From Planctomycetota bacterium (GTDB lineage Bacteria > Planctomycetota > UBA8108 > SXIK01): a stretch of 64,000 nucleotides of DNA. This document shows positions 24,519 through 57,900 of the stretch, piece by piece. Position 1 is the first letter of the stretch; each line of letters begins with the position of its first letter. The DNA is taken from assembly GCA_965223845.1 (NCBI GenBank), contig CBDCXR010000004.1, positions 1,760,001 through 1,824,000 on the forward strand, given 5' to 3'. The position numbers and the translations under genes were made by a program. A model generated the notes under the pieces. The model saw only the letters and a program-made list of their open reading frames with translations, did not search any database and had not been told where the DNA came from.

Positions 24519-24595
24519 GTGTCTCGGGAGACTCCCGAACGCTCGCGCGAGCACGGAACGAATTCATCAACCCACGAGAAGAGATCAGCGAAGCA

Positions 24596-26215: not shown

Positions 26216-26275
26216 CGCTGATCCTGTCCTCGAGAACACCTCCTTACGGCGCGCCCGCCGCCTCCCGAGTACATC

Positions 26276-27379: not shown

Positions 27380-27382
27380 GCG

Positions 27383-28801: not shown

Positions 28802-28825
28802 ACGAAGCCCGAGTACGCCGCACCC

Positions 28826-31443: not shown

Positions 31444-31477
31444 CGCCGTCCGCAGAGCGAGGGTGGACTCGCGAACG

Positions 31478-33270: not shown

Positions 33271-33312
33271 CCCCGATCGACGGATCGACCGAGCGAGACG
33301 CCGGAGGATCGA

Positions 33313-39873: not shown

Positions 39874-40015
39874 CGCGCGGCGGCGCCGCCCTCCTGTCGT
39901 TCGGCGAGCGACCTACGACAGGACCGCGACGACTCGTCGTAGAGCCTCGGTACGGAGGTGAGCTGCACTCGCCGGTTCGGTGTGCAGGACTCCCCGCGAG
40001 ACCGCGCGTTCGCGT

Positions 40016-40765: not shown

Positions 40766-40802
40766 CTCGCGCGTCCCTTTGTCCTTTAGCATCCGGCGCC
40801 TG

Positions 40803-41687
40803 TCAGAGACTCAAGTGACCGAGCGCGAGGAGCCCGTAGTACGTGTACTCGCAGTCGAGCGTGTCTTCGGCCCAGTGGCCGTAGAAGCTCCCGCGACTCG
40901 TCCAAAGGGTATCGATGAACTCGAGGCAATCGTCGCGAATCGAGTCGAGAGGACACTCGAGCGCAGCGAGCGCGTGGAGCGCCGTCGCCGTCGACAAGAG
41001 GTCGGGCACCGGCGTGCGCGGCCCGGCGCAGAATCCGCCGGCGCGACGGCAGCTACGGACGAGCCACTCGCCCGCCGAGGCGGGACAATCGATCCCGAGA
41101 GTCCGCGCGACGGTCACCGCGGCCGCCGTCGCGGGCGTCGCGCCCTCGGCGACGCGGGCGTCGTTCGCATAGCCTCCGTCGCTCTGCCGGCGTGCCGACA
41201 GAAACTCAGCGATCCGGGACGACGGGATTTCGCTCCCGAGGTCCTGGAGCGCACCGACGGCGAGAAAGACTCCGTAGACGTTCCCCATGTCCGCTCCGCG
41301 TTCGGTCGCGTAACCGCCGTCTGGGGTTCGGTGTCGGTCGATCTCGGCCTCGAAAGCGGCGCGGGCCGCGGTCGAAACCTCGAGCCCGCGGCTCGCCGTC
41401 GCTCGCACCGCAGAGGACAGATGGACGAGATCGAGGCTCGCGATCGTCTCCGGATCGGTGAAGGAGCACAGATACTCTCGCGTATCCGGAGGAAACTCCG
41501 TTCTCAGCGCGAGAAGGCATTCCGTGCCGAACAGCGTGTAATAGAGATCGGCCGCGCCGTCGCGATCACGAAACCCACCGTTCGGTGCGAGCTGGTCGAG
41601 AACGAACGCAGCGACGAGCTCCGTCGACTCACGCAGAAGCTGCGGCGCCAGTCTCGCGACCTGCAGCATTTCGAGTCTCATGCTCAC
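40803..41687 (-). CDS. Prenyltransferase/squalene-oxidase repeat (alpha/alpha barrel) protein
   Basis: Repeats NGGF..RDG.ADLYYT, DGGY, QSDGGY, AGGF...PDLLST and GSFYG...DCEYTYY. No DxDD. Confidence 0.82.
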   Translation of the reverse strand: MSMRLEMLQVARLAPQLLRESTELVAAFVLDQLAPNGGFRDRDGAADLYYTLFGTECLLALRTEFPPDTREYLCSFTDPETIASLDLVHLSSAVRATASRGLEVSTAARAAFEAEIDRHRTPDGGYATERGADMGNVYGVFLAVGALQDLGSEIPSSRIAEFLSARRQSDGGYANDARVAEGATPATAAAVTVARTLGIDCPASAGEWLVRSCRRAGGFCAGPRTPVPDLLSTATALHALAALECPLDSIRDDCLEFIDTLWTSRGSFYGHWAEDTLDCEYTYYGLLALGHLSL

Positions 41688-43353
41688 GGCACCAGCCCTT
41701 GATCTCGGCGTCGCCGAACATCTTGCCGATGACGCGCCGGAGGAGACCCTTCACGCTCGCGTTGCCGAGCGGCCAGAGAGACCGTATCGCCTCTTCCTTG
41801 TAGGCGTCGAAGAGCTCGCGGCAGCGAGCGACCGCGCCGAGCTCTTCCATGCGGCGCCGCACGGTGTCGGCGGGAACGGCCGCCTCGCGTCGCCAGAGTG
41901 CGTCGAAGAGCTCCCGATCGACTCCCTTCGCCTTTTCCCGCGCCACCGCGAGCGGAAGCGTCGGACGCAGAGCTTCGAGGTCGCCGGCCTCCGCCGTTTC
42001 GGCGAGATCGTCGAGGTCGTCGCGAATCTGGTACGCGATGCCGAGGGAGCGACTGAAATCCGTCACCACCTTCGCCGTCGCGTCGTCGCCGCCGCCGTAG
42101 AGAAGTCCGATCTGGAGCGCGACCTCGAATGCGGGCGCCGTCTTCTCGCGAAAGATGTTCACCACATCGATCGGCGCGAGTGGAGCGGGCCGGCGGGCCC
42201 AGCAGAGTTCTGCACCCTGGCCGCGGCAGAGCGTCCGGTGTCCTTCGGCCGCGACGCGAAGCATCGCGGCGCGCGTTTCAGGCGCCGCCTCGCACTCCGC
42301 GAGGATTCGGTACCCTTCGCCGATCAGAAGGTCGCCGACGTTGAGCGCGACCGGGACGCCGAGCTCGGCGTGGAGAGTCTCTTCGCCGTAGCGCACCGCA
42401 TCGTCGTCCTCGATGTCGTCGTGGACGAGCGATGCCTTGTGGAAACACTCGACGGCGATCGCGACGCGACGAAGATCGTCCGCGAGCTCCGCGTCGGGTT
42501 CCGCAGCGAGCGCCTGCTGCATCGCCACCGTCAGAATCGGACGCCAGCGCTTTCCGCTCCGTGCGAGCCAGGCGCGCGCGATCTCCTCCGTCTCCCCGGT
42601 CGGCTTGCCGAGAAGACGATCGAGCGACTCGCGCGTAAACCACTCGCGCACCTCGTCGCGGAGCGCGGCGAGGTCGAGGCGGCGCGTGCGATCGTCAGCC
42701 GTGAGCTGGATGACGTCCCAAATCCACTCCAGGTCGACGTTCGTATCCACGCAGTCGTCCTGCAGAAGCGGAATCGCCACGCCCGGGATCGCGGCCGCCT
42801 CCATGTACGGAAACGCGCGCTCGAGCACGCTGAGACAGCTCACCCCGACGATCGCATCGATCTTGCCGGTCTCGATGATCGACATCACGATGGGCGATCC
42901 CTCGGCGACCAGAACGGCGTAGCCGAGCCGCTCTGCCTCGGACTGGAGATCCTGAATCGAGCACATGCCGCACTTCTTGCAGAGGAGCCCGAACTCGTCG
43001 AAGGGCGCCGGACAGTGGGACTCGAGTCGGAGGCACTTCGGGAGGAGGAGAAGACGGCGCTCGAACGGAATCGTCGCGAGAGTCTCTCGCCAGAGCTCGT
43101 TGTTGAGAAGCACGCCGGTGAAGTCGACGAAGTTCTGGTCGATGCCAGTCTTCTTCAGAAGCTCGAGCGTCCTCTCACGCAGGGCGTCGATCGGAACCGG
43201 CGGAACGAGATCGTTCTCGGCGACGTAGCCGCGGACGAGTTCGCGCAGTCGCTCGCGCTCGGCGGCGGTCGCGGGGATGTTGCTCTGCGTGGGCCGACTC
43301 GGAATCTCGGCCGGCAGAGTCGGCAGCAGCTTGAGCGGAGGGGGGCTCGACAC
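41629..43353 (-). CDS. Polyprenyl-diphosphate synthase fused to an N-terminal Cys-rich DUF116-like domain
   Basis: N-terminal LLLPKCLR..CPA...CKKCG.C...GVSC...C. C-terminal GKRWRP, FARM SLVHDDIED, GD, GQ, KTA and SARM YQIRDDLDD. Confidence 0.88.
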   Translation of the reverse strand: MSSPPPLKLLPTLPAEIPSRPTQSNIPATAAERERLRELVRGYVAENDLVPPVPIDALRERTLELLKKTGIDQNFVDFTGVLLNNELWRETLATIPFERRLLLLPKCLRLESHCPAPFDEFGLLCKKCGMCSIQDLQSEAERLGYAVLVAEGSPIVMSIIETGKIDAIVGVSCLSVLERAFPYMEAAAIPGVAIPLLQDDCVDTNVDLEWIWDVIQLTADDRTRRLDLAALRDEVREWFTRESLDRLLGKPTGETEEIARAWLARSGKRWRPILTVAMQQALAAEPDAELADDLRRVAIAVECFHKASLVHDDIEDDDAVRYGEETLHAELGVPVALNVGDLLIGEGYRILAECEAAPETRAAMLRVAAEGHRTLCRGQGAELCWARRPAPLAPIDVVNIFREKTAPAFEVALQIGLLYGGGDDATAKVVTDFSRSLGIAYQIRDDLDDLAETAEAGDLEALRPTLPLAVAREKAKGVDRELFDALWRREAAVPADTVRRRMEELGAVARCRELFDAYKEEAIRSLWPLGNASVKGLLRRVIGKMFGDAEIKGWCREHETRNAAGRETGAAASA

Positions 43354-43383: not shown

Positions 43384-44271
43384 TCAAGAGGACTCGCCCG
43401 AAGGCGCGTCCGCGCTCCCAGTGTTCGGCCCTCGAGCTCCCGCCTCAGCGGCTCGGGCGCGAATCTCGTCCATCGACGGAAGCGACATCAGCACTTCCTC
43501 GGGGATGTCGAGATCGGACTGCAGCTTCTTCAGGCAGCGCATTCGCTCCTTGAGAGCCTTGCTCTCATCGCGCTCTTTCGAGAATCGCGACTCCGCCCGT
43601 CGATGGCGCTCCCGGAGAGCGCTGTAGATATCGCCGCCGAGTAGGGCGGAGATGTCGACCTTCATTTTCTCGCGCTCGACGTCCTCGTCACTCACGTTCG
43701 CGCCGTTGATGGGGCCGGCGCCGTATTTCGGGAAGAGGATGGCGACTTCCGGGCAAACCCGCGAGCAGGCCGGGCAGTTCGTCTTACACTTGTCCGGGTT
43801 CTTCACTTCGATCTGCGAATCCGCGTCGACCCCGTAGACGTCGAACAGGCAGAAGCTGAGGCACTGCATGCAGTTCGTGCAGCGCTCGAAGTCGATAACG
43901 GGAAACCACGGCTTCCACGCGCCCGGCTCGGGCGCACCGGCGTCTCGCGCCACGGATTCGACGAGCTCCGCCACGGCCGTCGGCTCGACCGAAGCGATGT
44001 CGTGCACTCCGTTGTGTTCGGCGGAGGATTCCGGCTTCTCGTCACGACCGTCGCGAAGAACGATCGTATCGGCCGGGAGAGCCTCGTTCCCTCCGCCCGC
44101 GAACGACGAGGCATCGCTGCCGGCGTACCGCACGGCGAAGCCCTTCTCGAGCACGGCCTTCAAGACGTCGCGCCGGCGCTCGACGGCCGCGTCCGAGTCG
44201 GCGACGGGGCCGCGCAAGAGCACGGGAACTCTCGCCCGCGAGGGGGCTGGGGTCGCTGCTTGGGGCGGCAC
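43384..44271 (-). CDS. 2x[4Fe-4S] ferredoxin-domain protein
   Basis: CTNCMQCLSFC and CKTNCPACSRVCP motifs. GTG start follows GGAGG. Confidence 0.85.
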   Translation of the reverse strand: MPPQAATPAPSRARVPVLLRGPVADSDAAVERRRDVLKAVLEKGFAVRYAGSDASSFAGGGNEALPADTIVLRDGRDEKPESSAEHNGVHDIASVEPTAVAELVESVARDAGAPEPGAWKPWFPVIDFERCTNCMQCLSFCLFDVYGVDADSQIEVKNPDKCKTNCPACSRVCPEVAILFPKYGAGPINGANVSDEDVEREKMKVDISALLGGDIYSALRERHRRAESRFSKERDESKALKERMRCLKKLQSDLDIPEEVLMSLPSMDEIRARAAEAGARGPNTGSADAPSGESS

Positions 44272-44349: not shown

Positions 44350-44721
44350 TCAGGTCTCCGCACTCGCGGGTCGCGCGGAAGGCTCGCGAAGAAGCGTCTC
44401 GACGATCGTCTTCGGATCCTCTTCGCGCATGTTGCAGATCTCGACCGGAGGTGCAGACTCCCCCTCAGCCAGCGGCGCTCCCGCCGCCTTGAAGAGCCAC
44501 TTCACCGACCGGGGAAAACAGGCCGCGATGCGAACCTCGGCGTTCGGTTCCGCCAATCGCGCGAGAGACGGGTCGCGCCGAGCCGAGAGTTCACACAGGT
44601 CGGCGACCGCCTCGAACGGTTCGCCCGAGCGGGCGAGCTCCGCGAGAACCGCATCCTTTACGCCAGGCGAGATGATCTTCGCGTAGGCGCAATGGCAGTA
44701 GAGGATCCGAGTCGGTGCCAT
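44350..44721 (-). CDS. Small Cys protein resembling the N-terminal Fe-S domain of HdrA
   Basis: YCHC...DLC...AACFPR...NMRE matches the HdrA-N pattern VCHC...MC...AACSPR...NIRE. Confidence 0.65.
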   Translation of the reverse strand: MAPTRILYCHCAYAKIISPGVKDAVLAELARSGEPFEAVADLCELSARRDPSLARLAEPNAEVRIAACFPRSVKWLFKAAGAPLAEGESAPPVEICNMREEDPKTIVETLLREPSARPASAET

Positions 44722-44779
44722 GAGAAGTACCACGAGATAAACCCCGGTCGAGGAGACGACTCTCGGGCCGAATCCCGAC

Positions 44780-44808
44780 ATGCTATCAGGATCGGCGGAG
44801 GATGTCAG
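44780..44808 (-). promoter_or_regulatory. Putative internal sigma70 promoter CTGACA-N17-TAGCAT
   Basis: 5/6 match at -35 (44808-44803), 17-nt spacer and 4/6 match at -10 (44785-44780), in the 210-nt gap before the Fe-S/terpene genes. Confidence 0.35.
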
Positions 44809-44931
44809 CTCCCGTGCCAGGGAAGCCAAGACGGGATAGGGAGTTACGTCGATTGCGCGGAGCTCGGAGCGCGCTCGGCGGCGGCCGGGCGCACGAGTCC
44901 CGAGATTCTCCTCGGGGCTTCGCTCCTCCCG

Positions 44932-46029
44932 TCATTCCTCCATGCGGTGCGTCGGCTGGGGCTCGCCCGGACGGAAGCTCTCGAGATCGTCGACCCGGAC
45001 GTCGGGGACCGAGATCTCCTCGAGGACCGACGCGACGGCTTCGCGGAGGACCGCGGGATCGGCCTCGGCGCGCAGATTGATGATCAGCTCGCCCGAACGA
45101 ATCGGGGTAGAGAGGCGCATTCCCGTCTCGGGGACGAATTCATTGCCGACGAGCTGACTCACCGCGAGCTCGCCGAGCACGGTACCGCTCGAGAGCGTGA
45201 GTTTCAGGTGCGCGATGTCGCGGACGTCACCCCGCAGGCGCTCCTGCAGCGACGCCATGATCCCGTCGACGAACGCGTTGCCGTCGAACTCTTCGGCGTG
45301 GCTCACGGTCGCGGTCGCGTTCAGCCACCCGAGGAGAGCCTCGCCCTCGCCGTAGATCGCGTAGTCGAGGTCCATCGCTTTCCCGCCCGGGAGATCCTCC
45401 GCGAGGATCCGATCGAGCCACGCGTCGAGGCCCTCGCCGCTCCGCGCCGAGACCTGAATCACGTCCGCACGCGCAAAGCGTTCCGCGAGAGCGCTCTCGA
45501 GCGCACGTCTCTCGTCCGGCGAGAGCAGATCGATCTTGTTGATCGCGATGAGGTGCGCCTCCTCGAGCTGCTTCTCGTAGATGTAGACGACTTTGCGCGA
45601 GAATTGCCGTCCGGATTCGAGCCCGAGTACCCGCATCGCTCGGCGCGGATCGACGAGCACGGTGAGCGGGGCGATCCGATAGCGCTCACCGTACATTCGC
45701 CGTAGCGGGTAACTGACCGAGGCGACGAGATCGGTGCAACTACCGACCGGCTCAGCGAGGAATACGTCGGGGCGATTCGCCGCGCTGAGATTGTCCGCCG
45801 CCGCGAGGAGGGAGCTGAACCGGCAGCAGAAACAACCGCCCGCGATCTCTTCAACGGCGTAGCCGCGCGCGCGGAGGAACCGCGTATCGACGAGGCCCTC
45901 TCCCTGATCGTTCGTGATCAATCCCACGGAGAGTCCCCGGGCGACGATCCGCTTCGCGAGCTCGGCGAGGGCCGTCGATTTACCCGCGCCGAGGAAGCCG
46001 CCGACCATGATGTAGTGTGCTCGATCCAA
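44932..46029 (-). CDS. CobW/COG0523-family G3E metallochaperone GTPase
   Basis: GGFLGAGKST, ITND.G, GGCFCC, EPVG and INKID. Confidence 0.9.
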   Translation of the reverse strand: MDRAHYIMVGGFLGAGKSTALAELAKRIVARGLSVGLITNDQGEGLVDTRFLRARGYAVEEIAGGCFCCRFSSLLAAADNLSAANRPDVFLAEPVGSCTDLVASVSYPLRRMYGERYRIAPLTVLVDPRRAMRVLGLESGRQFSRKVVYIYEKQLEEAHLIAINKIDLLSPDERRALESALAERFARADVIQVSARSGEGLDAWLDRILAEDLPGGKAMDLDYAIYGEGEALLGWLNATATVSHAEEFDGNAFVDGIMASLQERLRGDVRDIAHLKLTLSSGTVLGELAVSQLVGNEFVPETGMRLSTPIRSGELIINLRAEADPAVLREAVASVLEEISVPDVRVDDLESFRPGEPQPTHRMEE

Positions 46030-46059: not shown

Positions 46060-46566
46060 TCAGCAGTCGGCGCCACCCGCGCCGAGGTCCACTCCGCTCC
46101 GCCAGGGTTGCTCGAGCATCTTGTCGATCGTCGCGTGGAGCTGCGCGACGTATCCCTCGACGTCGACGGCCTTCGGATCGGGCGTCCCGCGGAGCGCGAA
46201 CAGCCAACCGTCGCCGTACGGATCCTTGCAGATCAGCTCGGGGTCCTCGCGGACGGCGGGATTCACGCCAGCGAATTCACCGCCCGCCACAGAATAGATA
46301 TCCGAGACCGCCTTAAACCCTTCGATCCAGCCGAGGGCCTGCGCGACCTCGACTTTTTGCCCCTCGTCGACTTCAAACTCGAACTCCACGATTTCGCCGA
46401 GCATTCGAGTTGCGAACCCGGTGAGTCCGACTCGCCACGTGGATGCGTCCTTCTCGTCGGGGCACGTGAGCCAGTAGTGCGAGAGCGTGTAGACGTACTC
46501 GCGGGGCAGTCGAGTCGAGAAGTGGTTTCGCTTGAAGCGAATCGGGCCGTCGTCCGGGGCGGTCAT
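46060..46566 (-). CDS. Glycine-cleavage H-protein-like (lipoyl-domain) carrier protein
   Basis: SHYW...RVGLT.FA..LG.I, IEGFKAVSD (lipoyl-site Lys), VN and DPYGDGWLF. No gcvT or gcvP in the window. Confidence 0.85.
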   Translation of the reverse strand: MTAPDDGPIRFKRNHFSTRLPREYVYTLSHYWLTCPDEKDASTWRVGLTGFATRMLGEIVEFEFEVDEGQKVEVAQALGWIEGFKAVSDIYSVAGGEFAGVNPAVREDPELICKDPYGDGWLFALRGTPDPKAVDVEGYVAQLHATIDKMLEQPWRSGVDLGAGGADC

Positions 46567-46580
46567 CGGTGTGACTTTTC

Positions 46581-47786
46581 TCAGCGCTCGCCGGTTGGAA
46601 GGCAGTGATCGGCGCGCGGGGCCGATCGGGGTCGAGCGCGCAGCTCGGTCACGGCCGCGATCACCGAGTCGGCGGCTCGCTCGATCTCGTCGGGCGTCGT
46701 CGTTCGTCCGAGACCGAATCGCAGCGACCCCTCCGCGGCCGCGCTCGAGCCGTAGAGCATCTGGAGGACGTAGGAGCCGGTTTGCTTCGCCGACGAACAC
46801 GCGGCGCCGGACGAGACCGCGACGCTGGGGATGGCGCGGAGGAGGTCCTCGCTGTGAACGCCGAATCCGACGCTCAGATTGTTCGGGAGACGATCCGTCA
46901 TCGTTCCGTGGAGGGTGACACCCTCGAGCCCCGTGCGCAGACGGTGCCAGAGGCGGTCCCGCAGTTTGGAGATGCGTTCGCTGTCGCGGTCTCGCTCCTC
47001 GGCGACGATCGCGGCCGCGCAGCCGAAGCCCACGATCCCCGGAACGTTGAGTGTTCCCGACCGCAGACCGCGCTCGTGTCCACCCCCGTCGATTTGCGCG
47101 CGCAGTCGCACCCGCGGCCGACGCCGGCGCACATAGAGGGCGCCGACGCCTTTCGGCCCGTACATCTTATGCGCGGAAAGCGAGAGGAGATCGACGCCGA
47201 GCTCGTCGACCCCGAGCGGAAGATGCGCTCCGGCCTGGGCGGCGTCCGAATGAAGGAGCGTGCCGTGCCGACGACAAATCGCCGAGATCTCTCGGAGCGG
47301 ATGCACCGTGCCGATCTCGTTGTTCGCGTACATGAGGGAAACGAGCGCAGTCTCGTCGCGAATCGCATTCTCGAGTCGATCGAGGTCGAGCGTTCCGTCC
47401 GCGTCGACTCCGAGATAGGTCACCTCGAACCCGTCTTCCTCGAGGCGTGCGCAGGTATCGAGAACCGCTTTGTGCTCGGTCCCACAGGTGACCAGGTGTC
47501 GTCCGCGCGCACCGGTCGCGGTCATGACGCCTTTGAGCGCGAGGTTGTTCGATTCCGTCGCGCCCGAGGTGAATACGATCTCGCGGGGATCCGCGGCGAG
47601 CAGATCGGCGACTTCCGCGCGTGCGCGCTCGACGTGGCGAGCCGCGGCCCGTCCGGCCGCGTGCTGTGCGCTCGCGGCGTTTCCGAACGTCTCCGCGAAC
47701 ATCGGGAGCATCGCTTCGACGACGCGGGGATCGCACGGCGTCGTCGCGTGGTGATCGAGATAAATCGGTGAAAATTCAGCGGCCAA
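46581..47786 (-). CDS. iscS: Cysteine desulfurase, IscS/NifS group I
   Basis: IYLDHHATTP, FTSGATESNN, EHKAV, ANNEIG, DAAQ, SAHKMYGPKG, RSGTLN and SSGAACSS. TTG start is estimated. Confidence 0.88.
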   Translation of the reverse strand: MAAEFSPIYLDHHATTPCDPRVVEAMLPMFAETFGNAASAQHAAGRAAARHVERARAEVADLLAADPREIVFTSGATESNNLALKGVMTATGARGRHLVTCGTEHKAVLDTCARLEEDGFEVTYLGVDADGTLDLDRLENAIRDETALVSLMYANNEIGTVHPLREISAICRRHGTLLHSDAAQAGAHLPLGVDELGVDLLSLSAHKMYGPKGVGALYVRRRRPRVRLRAQIDGGGHERGLRSGTLNVPGIVGFGCAAAIVAEERDRDSERISKLRDRLWHRLRTGLEGVTLHGTMTDRLPNNLSVGFGVHSEDLLRAIPSVAVSSGAACSSAKQTGSYVLQMLYGSSAAAEGSLRFGLGRTTTPDEIERAADSVIAAVTELRARPRSAPRADHCLPTGER

Positions 47787-48208
47787 GAGAGGTCCGAACG
47801 GGGACGTGGCGAGGTCGGAGAGCAGTCTCGGTGGTGGTCTACGCGGTGCCGGAGATTCTATCGCGACTCGCACGATCGATCCAAAACCGTCGGCGACGCG
47901 AGCCGCTTGGGCCGCGGCGGCCGCCCGAGCGTTTTCGGTACTTGTCGGGAGCGGTTCCCGACCGACCGCTCGCGACGAGCACCGGCGCGACTCCCGCGCG
48001 GCGGGGCGATTCCCGTCGCATCCTTCGGGCGAGGAGGATCTCAATCTTGCCCGCTCGAGTCCGAGCGCGCCTCGGCGCGCTGTGGGTCGAAATCCTTTCT
48101 TGTCCGGCAGCCGCCCTCTTATGATCACTCTGTCCCGACTTCAAACGCTGAGACAGCCGAGTCGAGTGACGTCGATTTCTCCATCTCTCCGCGACTCTCA
48201 CCAACGCG

Positions 48209-49513
48209 ATGACGACGCCCCTCTCCGAAGAAGATACCGAAGTCGGTAGTTACTTCATCTCGAACTACCCGCCGTTCAGCTTTTGGAAGCCGGAGCACGT
48301 AGATTCCGCCCGGGCGGCCATCGATCGATCGCCCGCGCCGGACGTACCGCTCGGACTCTATCTCCACATCCCGTTTTGCCGAAAACGGTGCAAGTTCTGC
48401 TACTTTCGGGTCTACACCGAAAAGAACAGCCGTGAAGTGGAGCGCTATCTAGCCGCACTCGTTCGCGAGATCGCTCTATACAGCGAGCGGCCCGTCCTCG
48501 AGGGGCGACCGTTTCGATTCGCGTATTTCGGCGGTGGAACGCCGTCGTTCCTCAGCGAGAAGCAGCTCCTCTCCCTGGTCGATCGACTGCGCGCGTCGAT
48601 CGATTGGGACGACGCCGAGGAGGTCACGTTCGAGTGCGAGCCGGGAACGCTCACCGAACGAAAGCTGCGGGCGATCCGCGAGCTGGGAGTGACGCGCCTC
48701 AGTCTCGGCATCGAGAATTTCGACGACGCCATTCTCGAAGAGAACGGACGGGCACACCGCAGTCCGGAAGTGTTTCGCGCGTACGAGTGGGCTCGGGCGA
48801 TCGGATTCCCACAGATCAACGTCGATCTCATCGCCGGGATGGTCGGTGAAACGACAGAGAACTGGCACGAGTGTGTGCGGAAGACGATCGAGCTCGCGCC
48901 CGATTCGGTGACGATCTACCAGCTCGAGCTTCCGTTCAACGCGGTGTACTCGAGCGAGCTCCGAACGGGCGGCGAAGTCTCCGTCGCGACGTGGGGGCGG
49001 AAGCGGGAGTGGGTGGCCTACGCGTTCGACGCGCTGCGCGAAGCCGGCTATTCCGTCTCGAGCGCTTACACCATGGTGAAGGACCCCGACGCCAAGTTCG
49101 TCTATCGCGATGCGCTCTGGCGCGGCGCCGACATGCTCGGGACGGGGGTCGCTTCGTTTTCGCACGTCGCCGGCGTGCATTTTCAGAATCTTGACACCGA
49201 CACGCAGTACCTGGAGTCGCTCGAGAGCGGCGAGCTTCCGATCGGACGCGCGCTTCCCGTCACGGATCGCCAACGCATGATTCGCGAATTGATCCTCCAG
49301 CTCAAGCTCGGCTCGGTGGACCCGGCGTACTTTGAGCGCAAATTCGGGTTAAGGATCACGCGAGAGTTCGGTTCGGTCTGGGACGACCTTCGTGACCACG
49401 GGTATCTCGAGTCCGGCGACCCGCCCACTTTGACGCGAGACGGGCTTTTGCGCGTCGACGCGTTCCTCCCGCGATTCTTCGAGCCGGAGCACCAAGGCGC
49501 TCGGTATACGTAA
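48209..49513 (+). CDS. HemN-like radical SAM enzyme (class C methyltransferase-like)
   Basis: LYLHIPFCRKRCKFCYF (CxxxCxxC), FGGGTPS, ECEP, RLSLG and NVDLIAG. N-terminus has SNYPP rather than the HemN PRYTSYP. Confidence 0.88.
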   Translation: MTTPLSEEDTEVGSYFISNYPPFSFWKPEHVDSARAAIDRSPAPDVPLGLYLHIPFCRKRCKFCYFRVYTEKNSREVERYLAALVREIALYSERPVLEGRPFRFAYFGGGTPSFLSEKQLLSLVDRLRASIDWDDAEEVTFECEPGTLTERKLRAIRELGVTRLSLGIENFDDAILEENGRAHRSPEVFRAYEWARAIGFPQINVDLIAGMVGETTENWHECVRKTIELAPDSVTIYQLELPFNAVYSSELRTGGEVSVATWGRKREWVAYAFDALREAGYSVSSAYTMVKDPDAKFVYRDALWRGADMLGTGVASFSHVAGVHFQNLDTDTQYLESLESGELPIGRALPVTDRQRMIRELILQLKLGSVDPAYFERKFGLRITREFGSVWDDLRDHGYLESGDPPTLTRDGLLRVDAFLPRFFEPEHQGARYT

Positions 49514-49526
49514 GTCGAATTCGGCC

Positions 49527-50084
49527 ATGACACCGACCGTTCAGCTGACGACTCTCCTCGATTCTTTCCCGGACGGTCCTTTCCGTTCGAGCGATCTAGA
49601 GCTCATCTCACCAGCCGAGGTGCCGGAGCCCTACGCGCGGCTCCTCGTCCACAACCACCACATGACGGTGACGCTCGAAGATTTCCACCGAGCGACGCTT
49701 TCTCTCCAGGTGCTTGGCGAGAAGCGGACGGACGACAGCTACACGCGGCGGCTCACGCTGAGCGTGGGCTCTCCTGAAGAAGACCGACGGGTCGTCCTCG
49801 CAGGAATCATGCGCATCGCGCTCGATCGCTGCAGCGACCGAGTACGGCACGAGATCCTCTCCGGGGCGACACCCCTCGGGCGAATCCTAATCTCGAATCG
49901 CGTTCTTCGCCGAGTCGAGTCCAACGCGTATCTTCGCGTGAAGCTGAGCGCGCCCATCCGGACGATGTTCGCGCTCGCCGATGACACCAAGGGGTTCGCC
50001 TACGGACGCATCGCGCGCATCTTCTGCGACGGTGAGCAGGCGATCGAGCTGCTCGAGATCGTTCCGCCGGAGCCGGAAGAATGA
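49527..50084 (+). CDS. Chorismate-lyase (UbiC/UTRA-fold)-like protein
   Basis: LLVH..HMT.TLE, YTRR..L, EILSGATPLGRIL, YGR and final LLEI resemble the chorismate pyruvate-lyase pattern. Confidence 0.6.
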   Translation: MTPTVQLTTLLDSFPDGPFRSSDLELISPAEVPEPYARLLVHNHHMTVTLEDFHRATLSLQVLGEKRTDDSYTRRLTLSVGSPEEDRRVVLAGIMRIALDRCSDRVRHEILSGATPLGRILISNRVLRRVESNAYLRVKLSAPIRTMFALADDTKGFAYGRIARIFCDGEQAIELLEIVPPEPEE

Positions 50085-51343
50085 ACGATCGAGTCCCGGT
50101 AGTGGTGATCGGCGGTGGGCCGGCGGGCTCGACGGTCGCGGCGCTTCTCGCGGACGCGGGAGTCGGCGTGCGGCTCTTAGAGCGTGCGACGATGCCGCGC
50201 TTTCACATCGGAGAGTCTCTCATCACGGAAACCTACTGGACGTTCGAGCGCCTCGGGGTTCTCGATCGCTTGAAGGCCTCGGACTTCCCGAAGAAGTACA
50301 GCGTTCAGTTCATCTCCGAGAGCGGGCGTGCCTCTCGTCCGTTTTATTTCTACGAGCGGGATCCGCACGAGAGCTCGATGACTTGGCAGGTCGACCGCGC
50401 GGAGTTCGACCAGATGCTCCTTCAGAACGCGGCCGCGAAGGGGGCAGATGTCCGTACCGGCTACGGAGTTCGCCGCGTCCGCTTCGACGGCGAGCGCGCC
50501 GTGGGGGTCGAAGGGACGGACTCCGCGGGCGAACCATTCGCACTCGACGCGGATGTCGTGGTCGACGCGACGGGCCTTCACGCGCTCCTCGCTCGCCAAG
50601 AAAACCTCCTCCAGCGGGACCCGCATCTCGTCAAGGCCGCCGTATTCACGCACTTCGAAGGGGCGAGGCGAGACGAGGGAATCGACGAGGGCGCGACGCT
50701 CATCATCCACACGAAGGGAAACCGCGGCTGGTTTTGGTACATCCCGCTCAGTCGGGATCGCGTGAGCGTCGGAGTGGTCGGATCATCGCGGGAACTCATG
50801 CAGGGAGGCGTGAAACCGGACGAGATCCTCGCGCGCGAGATCGAAGCCTGCGCCGCGGTCAAGGATCGCGTTGCCGGCGCGCGACGCGTCAGCGACGTCC
50901 ATGTCACGAGCGACTATACCTACCGGGCGACGCGCTGTGCGGGCGACGGTTACGTGCTCGTCGGCGACGCGTTCGGGTTTCTCGATCCGATCTACTCCTC
51001 CGGCGTCCTGCTCGCGCTGAAATCGGGAGAGCTCGCGGCGGATACGATCGCGGCAGCCCTCGCCGACGGCGACATGTCGGCCGAACGTCTCAGCGCGATG
51101 GGCGCTCCGATCGCGACGGGAATGGAAGCGTTTCGGAAGATGGTCTACGCGTTCTACACACCGGGGTTCAGCTTCGCGAATTTCGTCGCGCAGCATCCGG
51201 AACATCGCGATGCCCTCGTTCGCGTCCTCATCGGAGACGTGTTCAAGGGTGACACCGATGAGATCTTTCAGGCGATGGGCGCGATGTGCGAGCTTCCCGA
51301 GGAAGTTCCTCTCGGCGGGGAAGGACCCGAGCACCGGGCGTGA
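50081..51343 (+). CDS. FAD-dependent oxidoreductase, flavin-dependent halogenase-like
   Basis: GGGPAG, PRFHIGESL, FPKK (Lys at the halogenase catalytic position), GWFWYIP (WxWxIP) and GDA.GFLDPIYSSG. Confidence 0.8.
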   Translation: MNDRVPVVVIGGGPAGSTVAALLADAGVGVRLLERATMPRFHIGESLITETYWTFERLGVLDRLKASDFPKKYSVQFISESGRASRPFYFYERDPHESSMTWQVDRAEFDQMLLQNAAAKGADVRTGYGVRRVRFDGERAVGVEGTDSAGEPFALDADVVVDATGLHALLARQENLLQRDPHLVKAAVFTHFEGARRDEGIDEGATLIIHTKGNRGWFWYIPLSRDRVSVGVVGSSRELMQGGVKPDEILAREIEACAAVKDRVAGARRVSDVHVTSDYTYRATRCAGDGYVLVGDAFGFLDPIYSSGVLLALKSGELAADTIAAALADGDMSAERLSAMGAPIATGMEAFRKMVYAFYTPGFSFANFVAQHPEHRDALVRVLIGDVFKGDTDEIFQAMGAMCELPEEVPLGGEGPEHRA

Positions 51344-51397
51344 TCGGAAAGAGCTCGACCACAATCTGCGGAGCGGCTTCGGGCCGAGAATGAGTCC

Positions 51398-52966
51398 TTA
51401 GAGGGTCGGTCCCAGTGACCACGGGCAAAACTCTTCCTCTCCGACGCCGTGGAGCTCGCTCTTCGTTTTCTGCCCGCTCGCGACGGCCAGCATCAATTCG
51501 AAGAGTTCGTCACCAACCTCGGGAAGCGGGACGCCTTCGAGCACCTTCCCGGCGTTGACGTCCATGTCGTCCTTCATGCGCTCGTACATCGGCGTGTTCG
51601 AAGCAATCTTGATGCACGGCGTCGGGCGGCAGCCGTAGACGGATCCCCGGCCGGTCGTGAACGCGCAGATGTTGGCCCCGCCGGCAACGATCCCCGTCAT
51701 CGACGCCGGATCGTAGCCCGGTGTATCCATTACGACGAAGCCCTTCTCGACGACGGGCTCGGCATACTTGTACACCGCTCGAAGCGCCGTCGAGCCGCCC
51801 TTCGCGATCGCTCCGAGTGATTTCTCGTAAATGGTCGTGAGGCCGCCTTCCTTGTTGCCGGGCGTGGGGTTGTTGTTGATCTCTGCGCCGAAGAGTTTCG
51901 TGTACCACTCCCACCAGCGGATGCGATCGAGAAGCGCTTCGCCGACTTCGCGGCTGATCGCCCGGCGCGTGAGAAGATGCTCCGCGCCGTAGATCTCGGT
52001 AGTCTCGCCGAGGATCGCCGTACCGCCGTGAGCGACGACGAGATCGGAGGCGAGACCGACCGCCGGATTCGCGGTGACGCCGCTGTAGCCGTCCGAGCCA
52101 CCACATTCCGTCCCGAAGACGAGGTGCGACGCCGGCACTTCGACTCTCTTCTCCGCCGCGGCTCGCGGGAGGAGCTCGGTGACCGCGCGAACTCCCGCCT
52201 CGACCGTTTTCGTGATGCCGCCGGCTTCTTGAATCGTCACGACGAGCGGGACACCTGCGTTCTCACCGTGCGAGGATACGCCGTCGACTTGAACGAGACG
52301 CTCAGTCTCGACCAGGTACGAAGCCTGACCGACTTCGCAGCCGAGGCCGATCAAGATGTAGCCGGCGATGTTCGGGTGGCGGGCGAATCCAGCGAGAGTG
52401 CGGCTGAGTTGCGCGTGGTCCGGGCTGTCGTACGCCATGCCGCAGCCGGTCTTGTGTGTGAGCGGAATCACGCCGTCGACTCCGGGGTACTCACGGAGAA
52501 CGTCGTCGCGAATTCGATCGGTGACGAAGCGGCTCGTCGACGCCGAGCAATTGACGGTGCTGATCACGGCGACGTAGTTTCGGGTGCCGACTCGGCCGTC
52601 GGCGCGGAGGTAGCCCCGAAAACTGCGAGTCTCCGGCGGAGCCGCCGGCGGGGGAGGGACATCCTCGGCGAACGCGTAGTCGCGCTCGAAGGCTTCCGCC
52701 GCGCAGTTGTCGACGTGAACGTGATCCCCCGGTGCGATGTCATTCGCCGCAAACCCGATCGTATGACCGTATTTCCGAATCGGATCTCCGGCGGGGATGC
52801 GCTCGGTCGCAATCTTGTGTCCGCGCGGGACGGCGGTCGTCGTCTCGATGTCGACTCCCGCGACACTCACGCACTCGCCGGGCCGCAGGTGGCGACAAAC
52901 GACGGCGATGTTGTCGTCGTCGCGGAGTCGAATCGCGGATCGGGTCGCGGCGTCCGGTGAAGGCAT
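51398..52966 (-). CDS. uxaA: Altronate/galactarate dehydratase, UxaA family
   Basis: SAF domain DNIAV..GHKIA..KYG..IG..HV; also VGTRNY, STVNCS, GCG, GLGCE, ECGGSD, NKEGGLTTI.EKSLG and FTTGRG. Confidence 0.85.
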   Translation of the reverse strand: MPSPDAATRSAIRLRDDDNIAVVCRHLRPGECVSVAGVDIETTTAVPRGHKIATERIPAGDPIRKYGHTIGFAANDIAPGDHVHVDNCAAEAFERDYAFAEDVPPPPAAPPETRSFRGYLRADGRVGTRNYVAVISTVNCSASTSRFVTDRIRDDVLREYPGVDGVIPLTHKTGCGMAYDSPDHAQLSRTLAGFARHPNIAGYILIGLGCEVGQASYLVETERLVQVDGVSSHGENAGVPLVVTIQEAGGITKTVEAGVRAVTELLPRAAAEKRVEVPASHLVFGTECGGSDGYSGVTANPAVGLASDLVVAHGGTAILGETTEIYGAEHLLTRRAISREVGEALLDRIRWWEWYTKLFGAEINNNPTPGNKEGGLTTIYEKSLGAIAKGGSTALRAVYKYAEPVVEKGFVVMDTPGYDPASMTGIVAGGANICAFTTGRGSVYGCRPTPCIKIASNTPMYERMKDDMDVNAGKVLEGVPLPEVGDELFELMLAVASGQKTKSELHGVGEEEFCPWSLGPTL

Positions 52967-54355: not shown

Positions 54356-54937
54356 ATGCCCAGCGAGACGGTCGCGTTTCTCCGTGAGTACTTTCGCGGT
54401 CCCCGCGCAGTCGGCGCCGTCGCGCCGAGCTCACGCTTCCTCGCGCGCACGATGGTCGAGAGTGGCGATCTCGCCGCGGCAAAGACGATCGTCGAGCTCG
54501 GACCCGGCACGGGCGCGTTTACTCAGGCCATCGCCGAAGCCGTCGATGACTCGGCGACGTTCCTCGCACTCGAAATCAATCCGGAGTTCGCCGAACGCGT
54601 CCGTGAGCGAGTGCCCCGCGCGACGGTGTACAACGACTCGGCCGCGAATCTCGCGTCGTATCTCGAGAGACACGGGAAAGACGGAGCCGATTGCGTCCTT
54701 TCCGGACTACCCTGGGCGAGCCTTCCGATGAAGGTGCAGGACAGCGTGATGGCGGCGGTGGTGGACAACCTCCGACCCGGCGGAATCTTCGCGACTTTCG
54801 CGTACATCCACGCGCTCGCGCTTCCGAATGCACGCAAGTTTCGCCGGCGGCTCGAGTCGCTCTTCGGCAAAGTCGAGTTGAGCCCAATCGTGTGGCGAAA
54901 CGTTCCGCCTGCGTTCGTCTATCGTTGCCGACGGTGA
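54356..54937 (+). CDS. Phospholipid/ornithine-lipid N-methyltransferase-like SAM methyltransferase (PmtA/OlsG type)
   Basis: FLR..F..P..VGAVAPSS.FLA..M, VELGPGTG, LEIN, SGLP, F.Y and WRNVPPA. Confidence 0.8.
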   Translation: MPSETVAFLREYFRGPRAVGAVAPSSRFLARTMVESGDLAAAKTIVELGPGTGAFTQAIAEAVDDSATFLALEINPEFAERVRERVPRATVYNDSAANLASYLERHGKDGADCVLSGLPWASLPMKVQDSVMAAVVDNLRPGGIFATFAYIHALALPNARKFRRRLESLFGKVELSPIVWRNVPPAFVYRCRR

Positions 54938-54972
54938 CGGCGATGCGGCGCGAACCGAGAGGCGACCGGACG

Positions 54973-57900
54973 GTGAACTGGATTCGAACGCCGCGGCGCC
55001 TCACTCTCGCCCTCTTCGTGCTTGCATTCTCGACCGGCGCCGCGGCCGAGGACGTCACCTGGCTCGTGCGCGAAGGTAAGCCCGTCGGCGTTCACCTCGA
55101 CGCGGGGGAATGGTACCCGCGCGGACGGTTCGTTGAGGGGCGCGGCGTCGAGAACTATCTCTACGCGAAGGCGACCCCGGCGGGCGCGAATTTTCGCGTC
55201 GTTGCTCGGGTCCGCATCCTCGAGCAGCGGGGGAGTGCAGCTTCGTTCTTTCTCGGTCCGGGACACTTCGGTTTCGAGGGCGCGCGCGAGACGCTCTACG
55301 TGAACGGGGGAATCTTCGGCGGACTCTCGCTCCTCGGATCGCCGACGGAGTACTTCCCTCGCGGCGAGTGGTTCGACTTTGAGGTCGTCGGCAAAGAGGG
55401 CGAGATCGAATTTAGGCTGAACGGAAAACTCGCGCACCGAGTGACCTACGACGGATCCGGTTTCGAACGCGTCGGATTCAGCCCGTGGCGATCGCAGATG
55501 CAGATCGAGAAGTTCGTTCTCTACGGCGGGACGCGACCCTACGCGCTCCCGGCGTCGCGCGGGTACTCGGTCCCGACGCTCGATCTCTCGAGCGACCGAC
55601 ATCGTCAAATCGTCGTCGACCGGGAAGCAGGACAGTACCTCGGCCATCCCACCACGGTTCTCCTCGAGGACGGTCGAACTCTCCTCTGCGTGTATCCAAA
55701 GGGGCACGGTCGCGGCGGAATCGTCTACAAGCGAAGCCGCGACGGCGGCCGGACGTGGAGCGAGCGACTGCCGACGCCGGCGAGCTGGGCGACGAGCAAG
55801 GAGGTCCCGACGATCCATCGGGTCGTCGACGCCGCGGGGAAGAAGCGACTGATCCTTTGGTCGGGTCTTTACCCCGCCCGACTCGCTGTCAGCGAAGATG
55901 ACGGCGCGTCGTGGAGCGAGCTAGTCCCTGCGGGGGACTGGGGCGGCATCGTCGTGATGGGATTCGTCGAGAAGCTCAAAACGCCCGGGCGTTACCTCGC
56001 TATGTTCCACGACGATGGACGATTTCTTGGCGCACAGCCGAATCGTCGAAACCCGGCGCGATTTCAACTCCTCAAAACCTTCTCGGGTGACGGCGGGCTG
56101 ACGTGGTCGTCGCCCGAGGTCGTCTACGAGGACTCGAACGTGCATCTCTGCGAGCCAGGTTGCATCCGCTCTCCGGACGGCAAGCGGCTCGCGGTGCTCC
56201 TCCGCGAGAATTCGCGCCAGCGGAACTCGTTTGTGATCTTCAGCGACGACGAGGGAGCGACGTGGACGGCGCCGCGCGAACTTCCGGGATCTCTCACCGG
56301 AGATCGCCACACCGGGAAGTATCTCCCGGATGGTCGGTTGTTCGTTTCGTTTCGGGACCGCACGCACGACAGTCCGACGAAGGGGGACTGGGTCGCCTGG
56401 GTCGGCACGTTCGAGGACATCGTCGCGGGAAAGGAGGGGCAGTACCGCGTTCGGCTGATGCGGAACACGAAGGACGCGGATTGCGCGTACCCGGGAGTCG
56501 AGGTGCTCCCCGACGGGACGATCGTCGCGACGACCTACGGACACTGGACGAAGGGGGAACCTCCCTACGTCGTCAGCGTTCGGCTCAAGGTGGAAGAGCT
56601 GGACGCGCTCGCGGCGAAGCTCGAGCCCGAGCTCGAGCCCGCCGGAACGACGCGGAAGAACGTTCTGTTCATCGTCGTAGACGACCTCCGGCCGGAGCTA
56701 GGTTGCTACGGGTCGACCATCGTGAAGAGTCCAAATATCGACCGTCTCGCCCGAGAGGGAGTCCTCTTCGACCGGGCTTACTGTCAATTCGCTCTCTGCA
56801 ACCCGTCGCGCACGAGCGTGCTCACCGGGATGCGCCCCGATCGCGTGGGAGTCGTGGGAAACCACTCCCACTTTCGCGATCGGCATCCGAGCCTGGTCAC
56901 CCTGCCCGAACACTTCAAGCGGCACGGCTACGAGACGAGGGCCGTAGGAAAGATCTACCACGGAGTGTTTCCAACCGGATCGAGCGTGCAGCCGGCCGAC
57001 ACGATGGGAGATCTCGCGTCTTGGTCCGCTCGCCCCTACCGCCCAGGCCCGCGCTACTACTACACGAAAGAGGGAGTCGCGGCGGCGAAGCGGGCCTACG
57101 CGCGAATGTACCGGGTGGAAGATCCAGCGCCGCACGATTGGACCTCGCGTCTCGTCTTCGGCCCGATGACGGAAGCGCCGGATGTTCCGGACGAAGATCT
57201 CTACGACGGCGACGTCGCGCGGCGTGCAGTCGAGCTACTCCGCGAGCTTCGTGATCGACGTTTCTTTCTCGCCGTCGGTTTCATCAAGCCGCACACGCCG
57301 TTCGTCGCCCCGAAGCGCTATTGGGACCGCTACGATCCGCGGGAGATCGCGCTCGCCGCGCGAAGCACGTTGCCGGCGGACGCCGCCTCGTTCGCCGGAC
57401 ACTCGTCCGGGGAGGTGAGGCGGTACACGGATCAGCCGAAACGGGGTCCTTTCTCAGCGGAAAACCAGCGCCGGATGCGGCACGGCTACGCTGCGTGCGT
57501 TTCCTTCGTCGACGCGCAGGTCGGTCGGCTCCTCGACGAACTCGACCGTCTCCGGCTGAGAGAGAGCACCGCCATCGTTCTCTTCGGCGATCACGGCTGG
57601 CACCTCGGTGAGCACGGACTCTGGGGAAAGGTCACGAACTTCGAGCTCGCGACTCGCTCGCCGCTCATCGTGTCGGCGCCCGGACTCCCGCGGGGCGAGA
57701 AAACTCGATCGCTCACCGAGCTCCTCGATATCTATCCGTCGATCTGCGAGCTCGCGGGACTTCCGAATCCGCGGCACCTCGATGGGCGAAGCTTCGTGCC
57801 CGTGTTGCGAAAGAGCGAGTCGAACGTGAAGACGGCTGCGTTTTCTCAGATGTCTCGCGGCGGTGTCATGGGCTACTCCGTGCGAGTCGACGGGGCTCGC

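Follow-up and report, generated by a model that had tools for sequence, protein, structure and literature searches.

A triad of closely spaced genes divergent from a terpenoid operon

We analysed a 64,000-nt stretch of DNA from a Planctomycetota bacterium (GenBank assembly GCA_965223845.1, contig CBDCXR010000004.1, positions 1,760,001 to 1,824,000), hereafter called the window, with a focus on a triad of genes encoding a HemN-fold radical S-adenosylmethionine (SAM) enzyme, a chorismate-lyase-like protein and a flavin-dependent halogenase family protein. The triad consists of three open reading frames (ORFs) on the plus strand, at 48209-49513 (P0001, 434 aa), 49527-50084 (P0002, 185 aa) and 50081-51343 (P0003, 420 aa). 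When the junctions were read from the DNA, the radical SAM gene was found to end with a TAA stop at 49511-49513, followed by a 13-nt gap and the ATG of the lyase-like gene at 49527, while the ATGA at 50081-50084 holds both the stop of the lyase-like gene and the start of the halogenase gene, which ends with a TGA at 51341-51343. The three closely spaced genes, with their gap and overlap, are therefore as described in a first-pass annotation of this DNA, made without database searches, which had also placed the triad divergently from a terpene operon. The latter is correct as well, since an 80-nt intergenic region (48129-48208) separates the radical SAM gene from a cysteine desulfurase gene on the minus strand, which belongs to that operon (operon B, see below). 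Third-position GC is 0.76 to 0.78 in all three triad genes, and the neighbouring genes are alike in this respect. A scan of 47900-51600 for sigma-70 promoters gave 0 sites, compared to 0.2 in shuffled sequences, and the two terminator-like sites in the same region both lie within genes and are within shuffle expectation.

The flavoprotein retains the signature residues of flavin-dependent halogenases

The flavoprotein encoded by the third gene matched the halogenase model PF04820 at 120.9 bits (cut-off 21), and fell far below the cut-off of the CmlS equivalog model (179.7 versus 900). Its matches among PDB sequences were 8zop (E 8.8e-63), 5buk, PltA, 3e1t, ChlB4, 3nix and CmlS; PltA, ChlB4, CmlS, 3e1t, 5buk and 5bva all matched at E 1e-41 to 1e-54 (PltA, ChlB4 and CmlS at E 1e-41 to 1e-53). 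Of these entries, 3e1t is CndH, 5buk is Mpy16 and 5bva is Bmp2; no paper was found for entry 8ZOP in a literature search. The alignments with PltA and 5buk extend to residues 402 and 408 of 420, near the C-terminus of the flavoprotein. Sub-threshold matches included UbiH-type hydroxylases and geranylgeranyl reductases.

The motifs noted earlier in this protein, i.e., GxGxxG, a Lys at the halogenase catalytic position, WxWxIP and FxDPxxSSG, were all recovered, as VVVIGGGPAGS, FPKKYS, GWFWYIPL and FLDPIYSSGV. In the alignments, FPKKYS corresponds to FPKKF in PltA and 5buk and to FPIKR in 3e1t, and GWFWYIPL is identical between the flavoprotein and 3e1t. GxGxxG, the Lys, WxWxIP and FxDPxxSxG are thus shared with PltA, ChlB4, CmlS, 3e1t, 5buk and 5bva. 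In an alignment of 37 sequences with 41 to 71% identity, K72, W217, W219, I221, P222 and the GDA..F.DP..S.G block were conserved at 97% or above, so that both the Lys and WxWxIP are nearly invariant. Judged by its sequence, the flavoprotein is clearly a member of the PltA/CmlS-type halogenase family with its signature residues kept, in line with the halogenase-like identity first given to it.

The radical SAM protein is a third, specialised HemN-family paralogue

The product of the first gene matched PF04055 at 87.4 bits and carries the motifs CRKRCKFC (CxxxCxxC) and YFGGGTPS (GGGTP, second SAM site). The best NCBIfam models were those of HemN, STM4012, ChuW/HutW, HemW and HemZ, and the protein scored below the curated cut-offs of all of these; the top model TIGR00538 (HemN) gave 175 bits versus a cut-off of 324.95, TIGR00539 (HemW) 166.7 versus 205.4 and the ChuW/HutW model 171.2 versus 400. 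The HemN_C domain PF06969 was not detected by a Pfam scan, and the strings PRYTSYP and HN..YW, already reported as missing in the first-pass annotation, are absent from the translation. By sequence comparison the protein matched HemN at E 4.7e-33 and NocN (PDB 9p2u) at E 5.6e-27, the latter over residues 47-239. The AlphaFold2 (AF2) model (pLDDT 89.2) was superimposed by Foldseek on E. coli HemN (1olt) with E 1.4e-30 and a TM score of 0.82 over 444 columns, i.e., over the full-length fold, and a look-up in the ESM Atlas returned 'coproporphyrinogen oxidase family' clusters only. The protein is thus HemN-like in fold and yet, judged by its scores, neither HemN nor HemW.

Since the same genome has genuine HemN (606.6 bits) and HemW (227 bits) genes at other sites, we regard the triad protein as a third, specialised paralogue. 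Its fold, CxxxCxxC and GGGTP are shared with E. coli HemN; unlike HemN, HemW, HemZ and ChuW, it has invariant motifs of its own in addition to its scores under the family cut-offs. These motifs, an N-terminal G.YF.SNYPP.S.W and a C-terminal RY, were found in all 18 orthologues compared, which have a mean column identity of 64%. The class C radical SAM methyltransferases (NosN/NocN, MenK/MqnK, ChuW/HutW) use two SAM to add a C1 unit to an sp2 carbon, and one of these, NocN, shows sequence similarity to the triad protein and shares its HemN-like fold. The triad protein further differs from both HemN and NocN in its set of constant partners, namely a propeller protein, a GcvH-like protein, the lyase and the halogenase. 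Candidate fusions of the radical SAM gene, suggested by open frames of 898, 883 and 774 aa, were rejected, since these are stop-free stretches of GC-rich DNA and the genes end at their own stops.

The lyase-like protein has a UbiC/DUF98 fold

The lyase-like protein matched no NCBIfam model, and no Pfam model with the threshold relaxed to E 10; the profiles of UbiC (PF04345) and of the DUF98/Rv2949c type (PF01947) accordingly gave no match. Searched with the profile of its own family, the PDB sequences yielded 2nwi at no better than E 0.23. For the AF2 model (pLDDT 94.5), the top Foldseek match was the DUF98 protein 2nwi (E 7.8e-9, TM 0.64/0.73), followed by E. coli UbiC (1jd3, 1fw9, 1g81 and 1g1b, E 5e-6 to 5e-5), which ranked above GntR-type effector domains. 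In a weak hhalign alignment with E. coli UbiC, HMTVTLE, TPLGRILI and YGR of the lyase-like family were paired with SMTKRFE, TPLGRYLF and WGR of UbiC. The same weak alignment (E 0.0058) sets Arg75 opposite the Arg of UbiC WLRE, with Arg74 adjacent; R74, together with E177, is invariant in 26 lyase-like sequences. The WLRE Arg and the LLTELF Glu are presumably the catalytic residues of UbiC. With the fold recovered by Foldseek and the UbiC motifs aligned, the chorismate-lyase-like identity proposed at first holds at the level of a UbiC/DUF98 fold. At E≤1e-10, 1339 of 1.84 billion cluster representatives belong to the family.

In one genome (G012, locus L040 on C3), the lyase-like and halogenase genes share one 714-aa stop-free frame at 5946-7883, which could be a lyase::halogenase fusion or a mere open frame in GC-rich DNA.

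The triad is the core of a larger orphan cluster

The phyletic distribution was determined in 201 genomes of the window's phylum. A radical SAM orthologue was found in 39 of these, with the orthologues at 52 to 63% identity for the radical SAM protein and 42 to 58% for the flavoprotein. The lyase-like gene was present in 28 genomes, 26 of them with strong matches, and all of these 26 also had the radical SAM gene. A halogenase match at E≤1e-50 was found in every radical-SAM-positive genome (39/39) and at E≤1e-84 in 38, and a further 15 genomes had weaker halogenase matches only (31 to 41% identity). When 19 other loci centred on the lyase-like gene were compared, nine had the triad in the same order, three had the radical SAM and lyase genes, and seven had the lyase alone. 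Because orthologues occur in 39/201 genomes and the same-order triad recurs in 9/19 other loci, the triad is more than a chance arrangement. In the complete genomes G043, G156 and G190, the triad genes lie more than 200 kb apart, with all three kept.

The first-pass annotation had missed partner genes at 20705-37523. The triad is the core of a larger orphan gene cluster, here called cluster A, which is common to several bacterial phyla. In the window, the further genes of cluster A all lie on the plus strand and encode a PaaK-like aryl/acyl-CoA ligase (20705-22174; AMP-binding_C_2; 48% identical to the ligase of locus L024), two PQQ_2/BamB-like beta-propeller proteins (22092-24518 and 24065-26215, with approximate ORF starts), a short AMP-binding-like protein (26222-27379), a divergent aldehyde-dehydrogenase-like protein (27380-28801), an iron-containing alcohol dehydrogenase (Fe-ADH; 28802-29989), a third beta-propeller protein (29863-31443), a GT4 glycosyltransferase (31151-32830), a 4HBT-type thioesterase (32827-33159), an ABC ATPase (33271-34032) and a 1234-aa FtsX-type permease (33819-37523). 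Counterparts of the genes at 22092-37523 adjoin the triad in L022-L026. The set that recurs across loci comprises a solute symporter, the short AMP-binding protein, the aldehyde-dehydrogenase-like protein, Fe-ADH, propellers, the radical SAM protein and the lyase, together with the halogenase, GT4, the 4HBT thioesterase, an unknown protein of 180 to 200 aa, the PaaK-like ligase, the ABC ATPase and the giant FtsX permease; in L025 the whole of it lies on one strand. In L027 (genome G183) and L051, the order is propeller-GT4-4HBT-ABC-FtsX-radical SAM-lyase-halogenase, and a galactarate-dehydratase-like gene is found further downstream in L027, as in the window.

The short AMP-binding-like and aldehyde-dehydrogenase-like proteins resemble, by description, the pairs GriC/GriD and EhpF/EhpG, in which an adenylating protein and an aldehyde-dehydrogenase-like reductase stand by an aromatic-acid pathway. 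A LuxE/LuxC or GriC/GriD identity found no support in Pfam, where the AMP-binding and Aldedh matches were weak and neither LuxE nor LuxC was matched at E≤1; in the PDB, the pair matched generic aldehyde dehydrogenases only.

When species-level genomes were searched with the alignment of the radical SAM protein, at least 564 relatives were returned, and neighbourhoods were counted for the best 80 of these, i.e., the loci most similar to the query, many of which end at contig ends. By their labels, 64 are planctomycete, 11 Acidobacteriota, 2 Verrucomicrobiota and 3 others. Most of the Acidobacteriota and Verrucomicrobiota loci with the radical SAM orthologue also have the halogenase. Named records with radical SAM relatives include Allorhodopirellula solitaria CA85 and Planctomycetaceae bacterium SH139. 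One orthologue with 61% identity (L077) lies on a contig labelled as an Alcaligenaceae metagenome-assembled genome, which would be betaproteobacterial; on the tree it falls in a Gemmataceae-type clade, and the label is probably a binning error.

Variants of cluster A without the lyase were also seen (L033, L034, L035, L037 and L041), in which the halogenase or 4HBT gene directly follows the radical SAM gene. These variants suggest that the aromatic acid may come from another source.

Operon B encodes an SHC-like cyclase and Fe-S-related proteins

Operon B lies on the minus strand between the FtsX permease gene and the triad. It encodes an SHC-like cyclase (38059-39912), a carbon-nitrogen (CN) hydrolase (40016-40792), a single-barrel prenyltransferase-toroid protein (40803-41687), a fusion of DUF116 and polyprenyl synthase (DUF116-PPS; 41629-43353), a 4Fe-4S dicluster protein (43384-44271), a small Cys protein (44350-44829), a CobW-like CFCC GTPase (44932-46029), a GcvH-like protein with a conserved Lys (about 46060-46569) and an IscS-type cysteine desulfurase (46581-48128). 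The cyclase has the DxDD motif (DADD at residue 367) and scores under the cut-offs for both SHC and OSC. In the GcvH-like protein, the Lys at the lipoyl position (IEGFKAVSD) is kept, and it is invariant in 25/25 aligned relatives. The longest ORF for this protein (46060-46800) overlaps the desulfurase gene by about 220 nt, and a start Met near 46566, giving about 168 aa, is likely. The CN hydrolase gene, between the cyclase and toroid genes, had no tblastn match in the other loci that bear operon B.

A second radical SAM gene that usually belongs to operon B is found at C4:716685-717908, 1.09 Mb away, and is 66% identical to the copy beside the SHC gene in G190. The idea that the HemN-like gene of the triad stands in for this operon B gene was rejected, since the latter is present in the genome.

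Longestin carries an aromatic acid and a sugar. Lon15, of a meroterpenoid pathway, and AtoE are epoxy-polyprenyl cyclases that form the sister clade of the SHC-like clade (McShea et al. 2025, PMC12414744; PMC7306690). The SHC-like clade itself is listed in these papers as of unknown function, and in planctomycetes the cyclase gene is found beside a polyprenyl synthase gene (PMC12414744; PMC7306690). Planctomycete SHC-like enzymes keep their catalytic residues, and their precursor is, judged by gene context, probably not squalene (Santana-Molina et al. 2020, PMC7306690). The window cyclase is a candidate member of this published clade, which it resembles as a sub-threshold SHC homologue with DxDD and a polyprenyl synthase neighbour. 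Neither 'halogenase' nor 'radical SAM' occurs in the available text of McShea et al. (PMC12414744); our literature search found no paper joining the SHC-like clade to the lyase/halogenase/radical SAM set, and for DUF116 it returned unrelated DUF116x papers only.

Cluster A and operon B are probably linked in planctomycetes

In the window, operon B (about 10 kb) splits cluster A, lying inverted between the FtsX and radical SAM genes, and the layout is the same in L048, whose radical SAM protein is 71% identical to that of the window. In 40 of the best 80 loci, a GcvH-like gene was the first one detected downstream of the radical SAM gene; 15 loci had the lyase in this position, 8 the halogenase and 4 another gene, and in 13 no gene was detected there. 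The gene preceding the radical SAM gene was a propeller gene in 42, which makes the third propeller gene of the window the counterpart of the usual upstream neighbour. The alignments of the radical SAM and GcvH-like genes were a median of 14 nt apart, and in 34/36 cases ≤150 nt apart. A ferredoxin-type gene was present in 15 of the 80 loci, and SHC, prenyl synthase or toroid genes lay within 10 kb in 7. Some loci combine the two gene sets closely. On one strand, L056 has radical SAM-GcvH-Fer4-SHC-PPS-lyase-MFS-GT4-4HBT and L030 has SHC-PPS-lyase-SSF (symporter)-4HBT-toroid-ABC-FtsX, and in L033 the halogenase, radical SAM and 4HBT genes stand beside desulfurase-SHC-toroid-PPS-Fer4. In L030, L052, L056 and L070, the gene immediately after that for prenyl synthase is UbiC-like.

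The two sets are also associated across genomes, as the DUF116-PPS fusion was found in 31/39 radical-SAM-positive genomes versus 22/162 others (a hand count, in which related genomes are not independent). On a FastTree phylogeny of 97 orthologues, adjacency to GcvH requires 6 changes, at least 4 of which are forced by well-supported branches, and proximity to terpene genes requires 8, scattered across several clades. Since the radical SAM gene habitually precedes GcvH-like and ferredoxin-type genes across planctomycetes, cluster A and operon B probably work together, either via a shared redox/carrier system for the radical SAM enzymes or towards a joint envelope product. What is new here is the evidence for this link; the enzymes belong to known families, and the pathway is an orphan.

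A proposed pathway to a halogenated, C1-modified 4-hydroxybenzoate

We propose that the triad is the aromatic-unit module of a conserved cluster A pathway, which would make a halogenated, C1-modified 4-hydroxybenzoate, with cluster A and operon B probably cooperating; we consider the chances for and against this proposal to be evenly balanced. Each step is inferred from family membership and gene context. The UbiC-fold enzyme would convert chorismate to 4-hydroxybenzoate (4-HB) and pyruvate, and the PaaK-like ligase (20705-22174) would turn the acid into a thioester. The PltA/CmlS-type flavin halogenase could then chlorinate or brominate the ring next to the hydroxyl, and the HemN-fold radical SAM enzyme could place a SAM-derived C1 unit on an sp2 carbon, the least certain of the steps, proposed by analogy with NocN/NosN, MenK/MqnK and ChuW. 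Release of the acid by the 4HBT thioesterase, its reduction by the short AMP-binding/aldehyde-dehydrogenase-like pair and Fe-ADH, and glycosylation of the reduced product by GT4 might follow, after which the ABC/FtsX transporter may hand the product to the secreted propeller proteins. Operon B could contribute in two ways. With its GcvH-like protein and ferredoxin, and with desulfurase and CobW-like maturation factors, it might provide both radical SAM enzymes with electrons or a carrier. Alternatively, the aromatic unit might be placed on a cyclic polyprenoid. The latter option gains weight from the probable non-squalene precursor of planctomycete SHC-like enzymes (Santana-Molina et al. 2020, PMC7306690), and it is weakened by the lack of a UbiA-type prenyltransferase nearby and by the many genomes with one set only.

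In known systems, parts of this logic recur. In the ambigol pathway, a lyase, an adenylating enzyme, a carrier and a halogenase act together. Bmp5 of the bmp-type clusters is a decarboxylating brominase of the single-component type and belongs to another subfamily, and these clusters have a P450 coupling enzyme and are not known to include a radical SAM enzyme, a reductase pair, GT4, propellers or an FtsX exporter. The bmp-type clusters (Bmp5/Bmp6) share with our proposal a chorismate lyase that feeds 4-HB to a flavin halogenase, and a cluster of chorismate lyase, flavin halogenase and P450 from a marine gammaproteobacterium was verified by heterologous expression (PMC10579414). The nearest described case, likened here by its description, is that of Planctomycetales strain 10988, in which baaA (chorismate-lyase-like) adjoins baaB (flavin halogenase); the two genes were proposed to account for 3,5-dibromo-p-anisic acid by a route from chorismate to 4-HB to ring-halogenated 4-HB, as proposed here, and the assignment was made without a mutant (Panter et al., bioRxiv 10.1101/723874). 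The pair is treated there as a small stand-alone locus, and the available part of the preprint mentions no radical SAM gene, whereas the present locus has a HemN-like enzyme, a cluster of 12 to 14 genes and a terpenoid operon (bioRxiv 10.1101/723874). No paper on the three-gene combination, or on cluster A combined with operon B, was found in our literature search.

A number of observations weigh against the proposed pathway. For the lyase, the hhalign match to E. coli UbiC is weak (E 0.0058) and sets the invariant Glu177 one column off the Glu of LLTELF. With the present query, 13/39 radical-SAM-positive genomes had no lyase-like match, and chorismate is therefore not the only possible source of the acid; a solute symporter is often found in cluster A loci. 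PltA/5buk-type halogenases use pyrrolyl- or tyrosyl-S-carrier protein substrates and belong to nonribosomal peptide or polyketide synthase clusters, and no acyl- or peptidyl-carrier protein or megasynthase is encoded in the present cluster; unlike in PltA-type clusters, a CoA ligase/thioesterase pair, often with a GcvH-like protein, takes the carrier's place in the gene order. For the link to operon B, cluster A occurs without DUF116-PPS in 8/39 genomes and operon B without cluster A in 22 genomes. In L027 and L051, the nearest relatives of the window locus, no terpene operon intervenes in the order FtsX-radical SAM-lyase-halogenase. A distance of 155 kb or more separates the two sets in seven single-contig genomes (G008, G043, G070, G095, G156, G173 and G176) and on one contig of the multi-contig genome G066. 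None of the 13 Acidobacteriota and Verrucomicrobiota loci has an operon B gene within 10 kb, and a DUF116-PPS match is absent from 3/5 of the genomes of these phyla that bear cluster A. The GcvH-like proteins adjacent to the radical SAM gene elsewhere are 25 to 38% identical to that of the window (66% in L048), and they match the other GcvH of the genome (C4:697306-697677), by its flanking ORFs probably the housekeeping gcv copy, about equally well. Finally, as the best 80 loci are the most query-like and 64 of them are planctomycete, the neighbourhood counts are valid for planctomycetes only.

The first-pass annotation had seen the triad as a unit building and decorating a head group for the terpene operon. 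The comparative data lend real support to this, but such a service stays tentative, given that L027 and L051 have no operon in between, that 8/39 genomes lack DUF116-PPS and that there is no UbiA-type aromatic prenyltransferase near cluster A or operon B, the genome's four UbiA-family genes lying about 1.07 to 1.53 Mb upstream of the window on C4.

Alternative explanations

The strongest competitor, which is the first-pass reading in its strong form, is a single hybrid pathway, in which the DUF116-prenyl synthase makes a polyprenyl chain, the SHC-like enzyme cyclises it and the head group from the triad is attached to it covalently, giving a halogenated and glycosylated meroterpenoid lipid. 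The alternation of genes of both sets on one strand in L030 and L056, the UbiC-like gene directly after the prenyl synthase gene in four loci, the phyletic association (31/39 versus 22/162), the DADD motif at residue 367 of the window cyclase and the probable non-squalene precursor of planctomycete SHC-like enzymes (Santana-Molina et al. 2020, PMC7306690) would all fit such a pathway. It is nevertheless rather doubtful, since neither set has a UbiA-type aromatic prenyltransferase in or near it, either set can occur alone (8/39 and 22 genomes), the sets lie at least 155 kb apart in seven single-contig genomes and in G066, and operon B of the window has its usual second radical SAM gene 1.09 Mb away. 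A more specific form, which we consider unlikely, would have cluster A and operon B as one pathway to a new class of envelope lipid, i.e., a glycosylated, halogenated, C1-modified hydroxybenzyl or benzoyl unit on a non-squalene cyclic polyprenoid. Here, the lipoyl-type GcvH-like protein with its invariant Lys would act as the aryl carrier, presenting the aryl thioester to the halogenase and radical SAM enzyme in place of the usual carrier. If true, this would place the 'SHC-like' cyclases, listed as of unknown function, in the context of a particular substrate and product.

The remaining alternatives would shrink the pathway or change its chemistry. Were the locus a small stand-alone one of the baa type, its product would be a hydroxybenzoate allelochemical, brominated or chlorinated and made by the lyase and halogenase, with all other neighbours, the radical SAM gene included, as bystanders. 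The precedents are baaA beside baaB in a planctomycete that makes a dibromo compound (bioRxiv 10.1101/723874) and the heterologously verified lyase, halogenase and P450 cluster (PMC10579414), the former being itself an assignment without a genetic test. It is improbable, as, of the three, the radical SAM gene is retained most widely (in 39 genomes versus 26 to 28 for the lyase-like gene) and is accompanied by the halogenase in 39/39, the genes are embedded in a conserved cluster of 12 to 14 genes and recur in Acidobacteriota and Verrucomicrobiota, and they are kept though dispersed, unlike those of a mobile secondary-metabolite locus. A similarly small probability attaches to a pathway without halogenation, in which the flavoprotein is a hydroxylase or reductase and the radical SAM enzyme a MenK/MqnK-like C-methylase, the product, with the prenyl synthase taking part, being a new prenylated quinone or a redox cofactor for the propellers. 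A lyase, a ring hydroxylase, a C-methylase and a polyprenyl synthase do make up the established logic of ubiquinone synthesis, PQQ_2-type propellers are constant neighbours, and the flavoprotein has sub-threshold matches to UbiH-type hydroxylases and geranylgeranyl reductases. Among its best matches, however, halogenases beat hydroxylases by at least 20 orders of magnitude, the halogenase-specific Lys and WxWxIP are conserved at 97% or above, no UbiA-type prenyltransferase is linked, and GT4, the thioesterase and the exporter are ill-suited to a quinone pathway. Least credible of all is an ordinary role in haem metabolism for the radical SAM gene, as a coproporphyrinogen dehydrogenase or haem chaperone gene that happens to lie beside a halogenase locus. 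The full-length HemN fold and TIGR00538 as the best-scoring NCBIfam model speak for it; against it stand the scores under the curated cut-offs of HemN, HemW, HemZ and ChuW/HutW, the undetected HemN_C domain (PF06969), the HemN (606.6 bits) and HemW (227 bits) already present elsewhere in the genome, and a conserved neighbourhood without any haem gene.

As a rule, flavin halogenases are accessories of secondary metabolism with a scattered distribution. In the present case, a signature-complete member of the family is kept together with a HemN-like radical SAM protein in about one in five of the planctomycete genomes sampled. That the triad is kept even when chromosomally dispersed, and that the radical SAM gene, mostly with the halogenase, occurs in further phyla, suggests a physiological rather than a niche role. 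That GcvH-like and ferredoxin genes habitually accompany the radical SAM gene, often along with an SHC-like cyclase and DUF116-prenyl synthase, is a concrete link that can be tested, and cultured planctomycetes with a defined gene set open both orphan systems to genetic and metabolomic study.

Neighbouring genes

Directly upstream of the PaaK-like ligase gene of cluster A, and on the same strand, lie a FadB-like gene (3-hydroxyacyl-CoA dehydrogenase and enoyl-CoA hydratase; 16925-19474) and a thiolase gene (19475-20704). Their products could supply the pathway by shortening a side chain, or have nothing to do with it. Beyond the triad, a 1617-aa multidomain ORF at 54691-59544 combines BNR_2, sulfatase, SGSH_C and SASA (sialate acetylesterase-like) domains, and is followed by a GlcNAc 2-epimerase-like gene and then a DHDPS-family gene. 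From these domains and genes, this part of the window looks like a locus for the degradation of sulfated or sialylated glycans.

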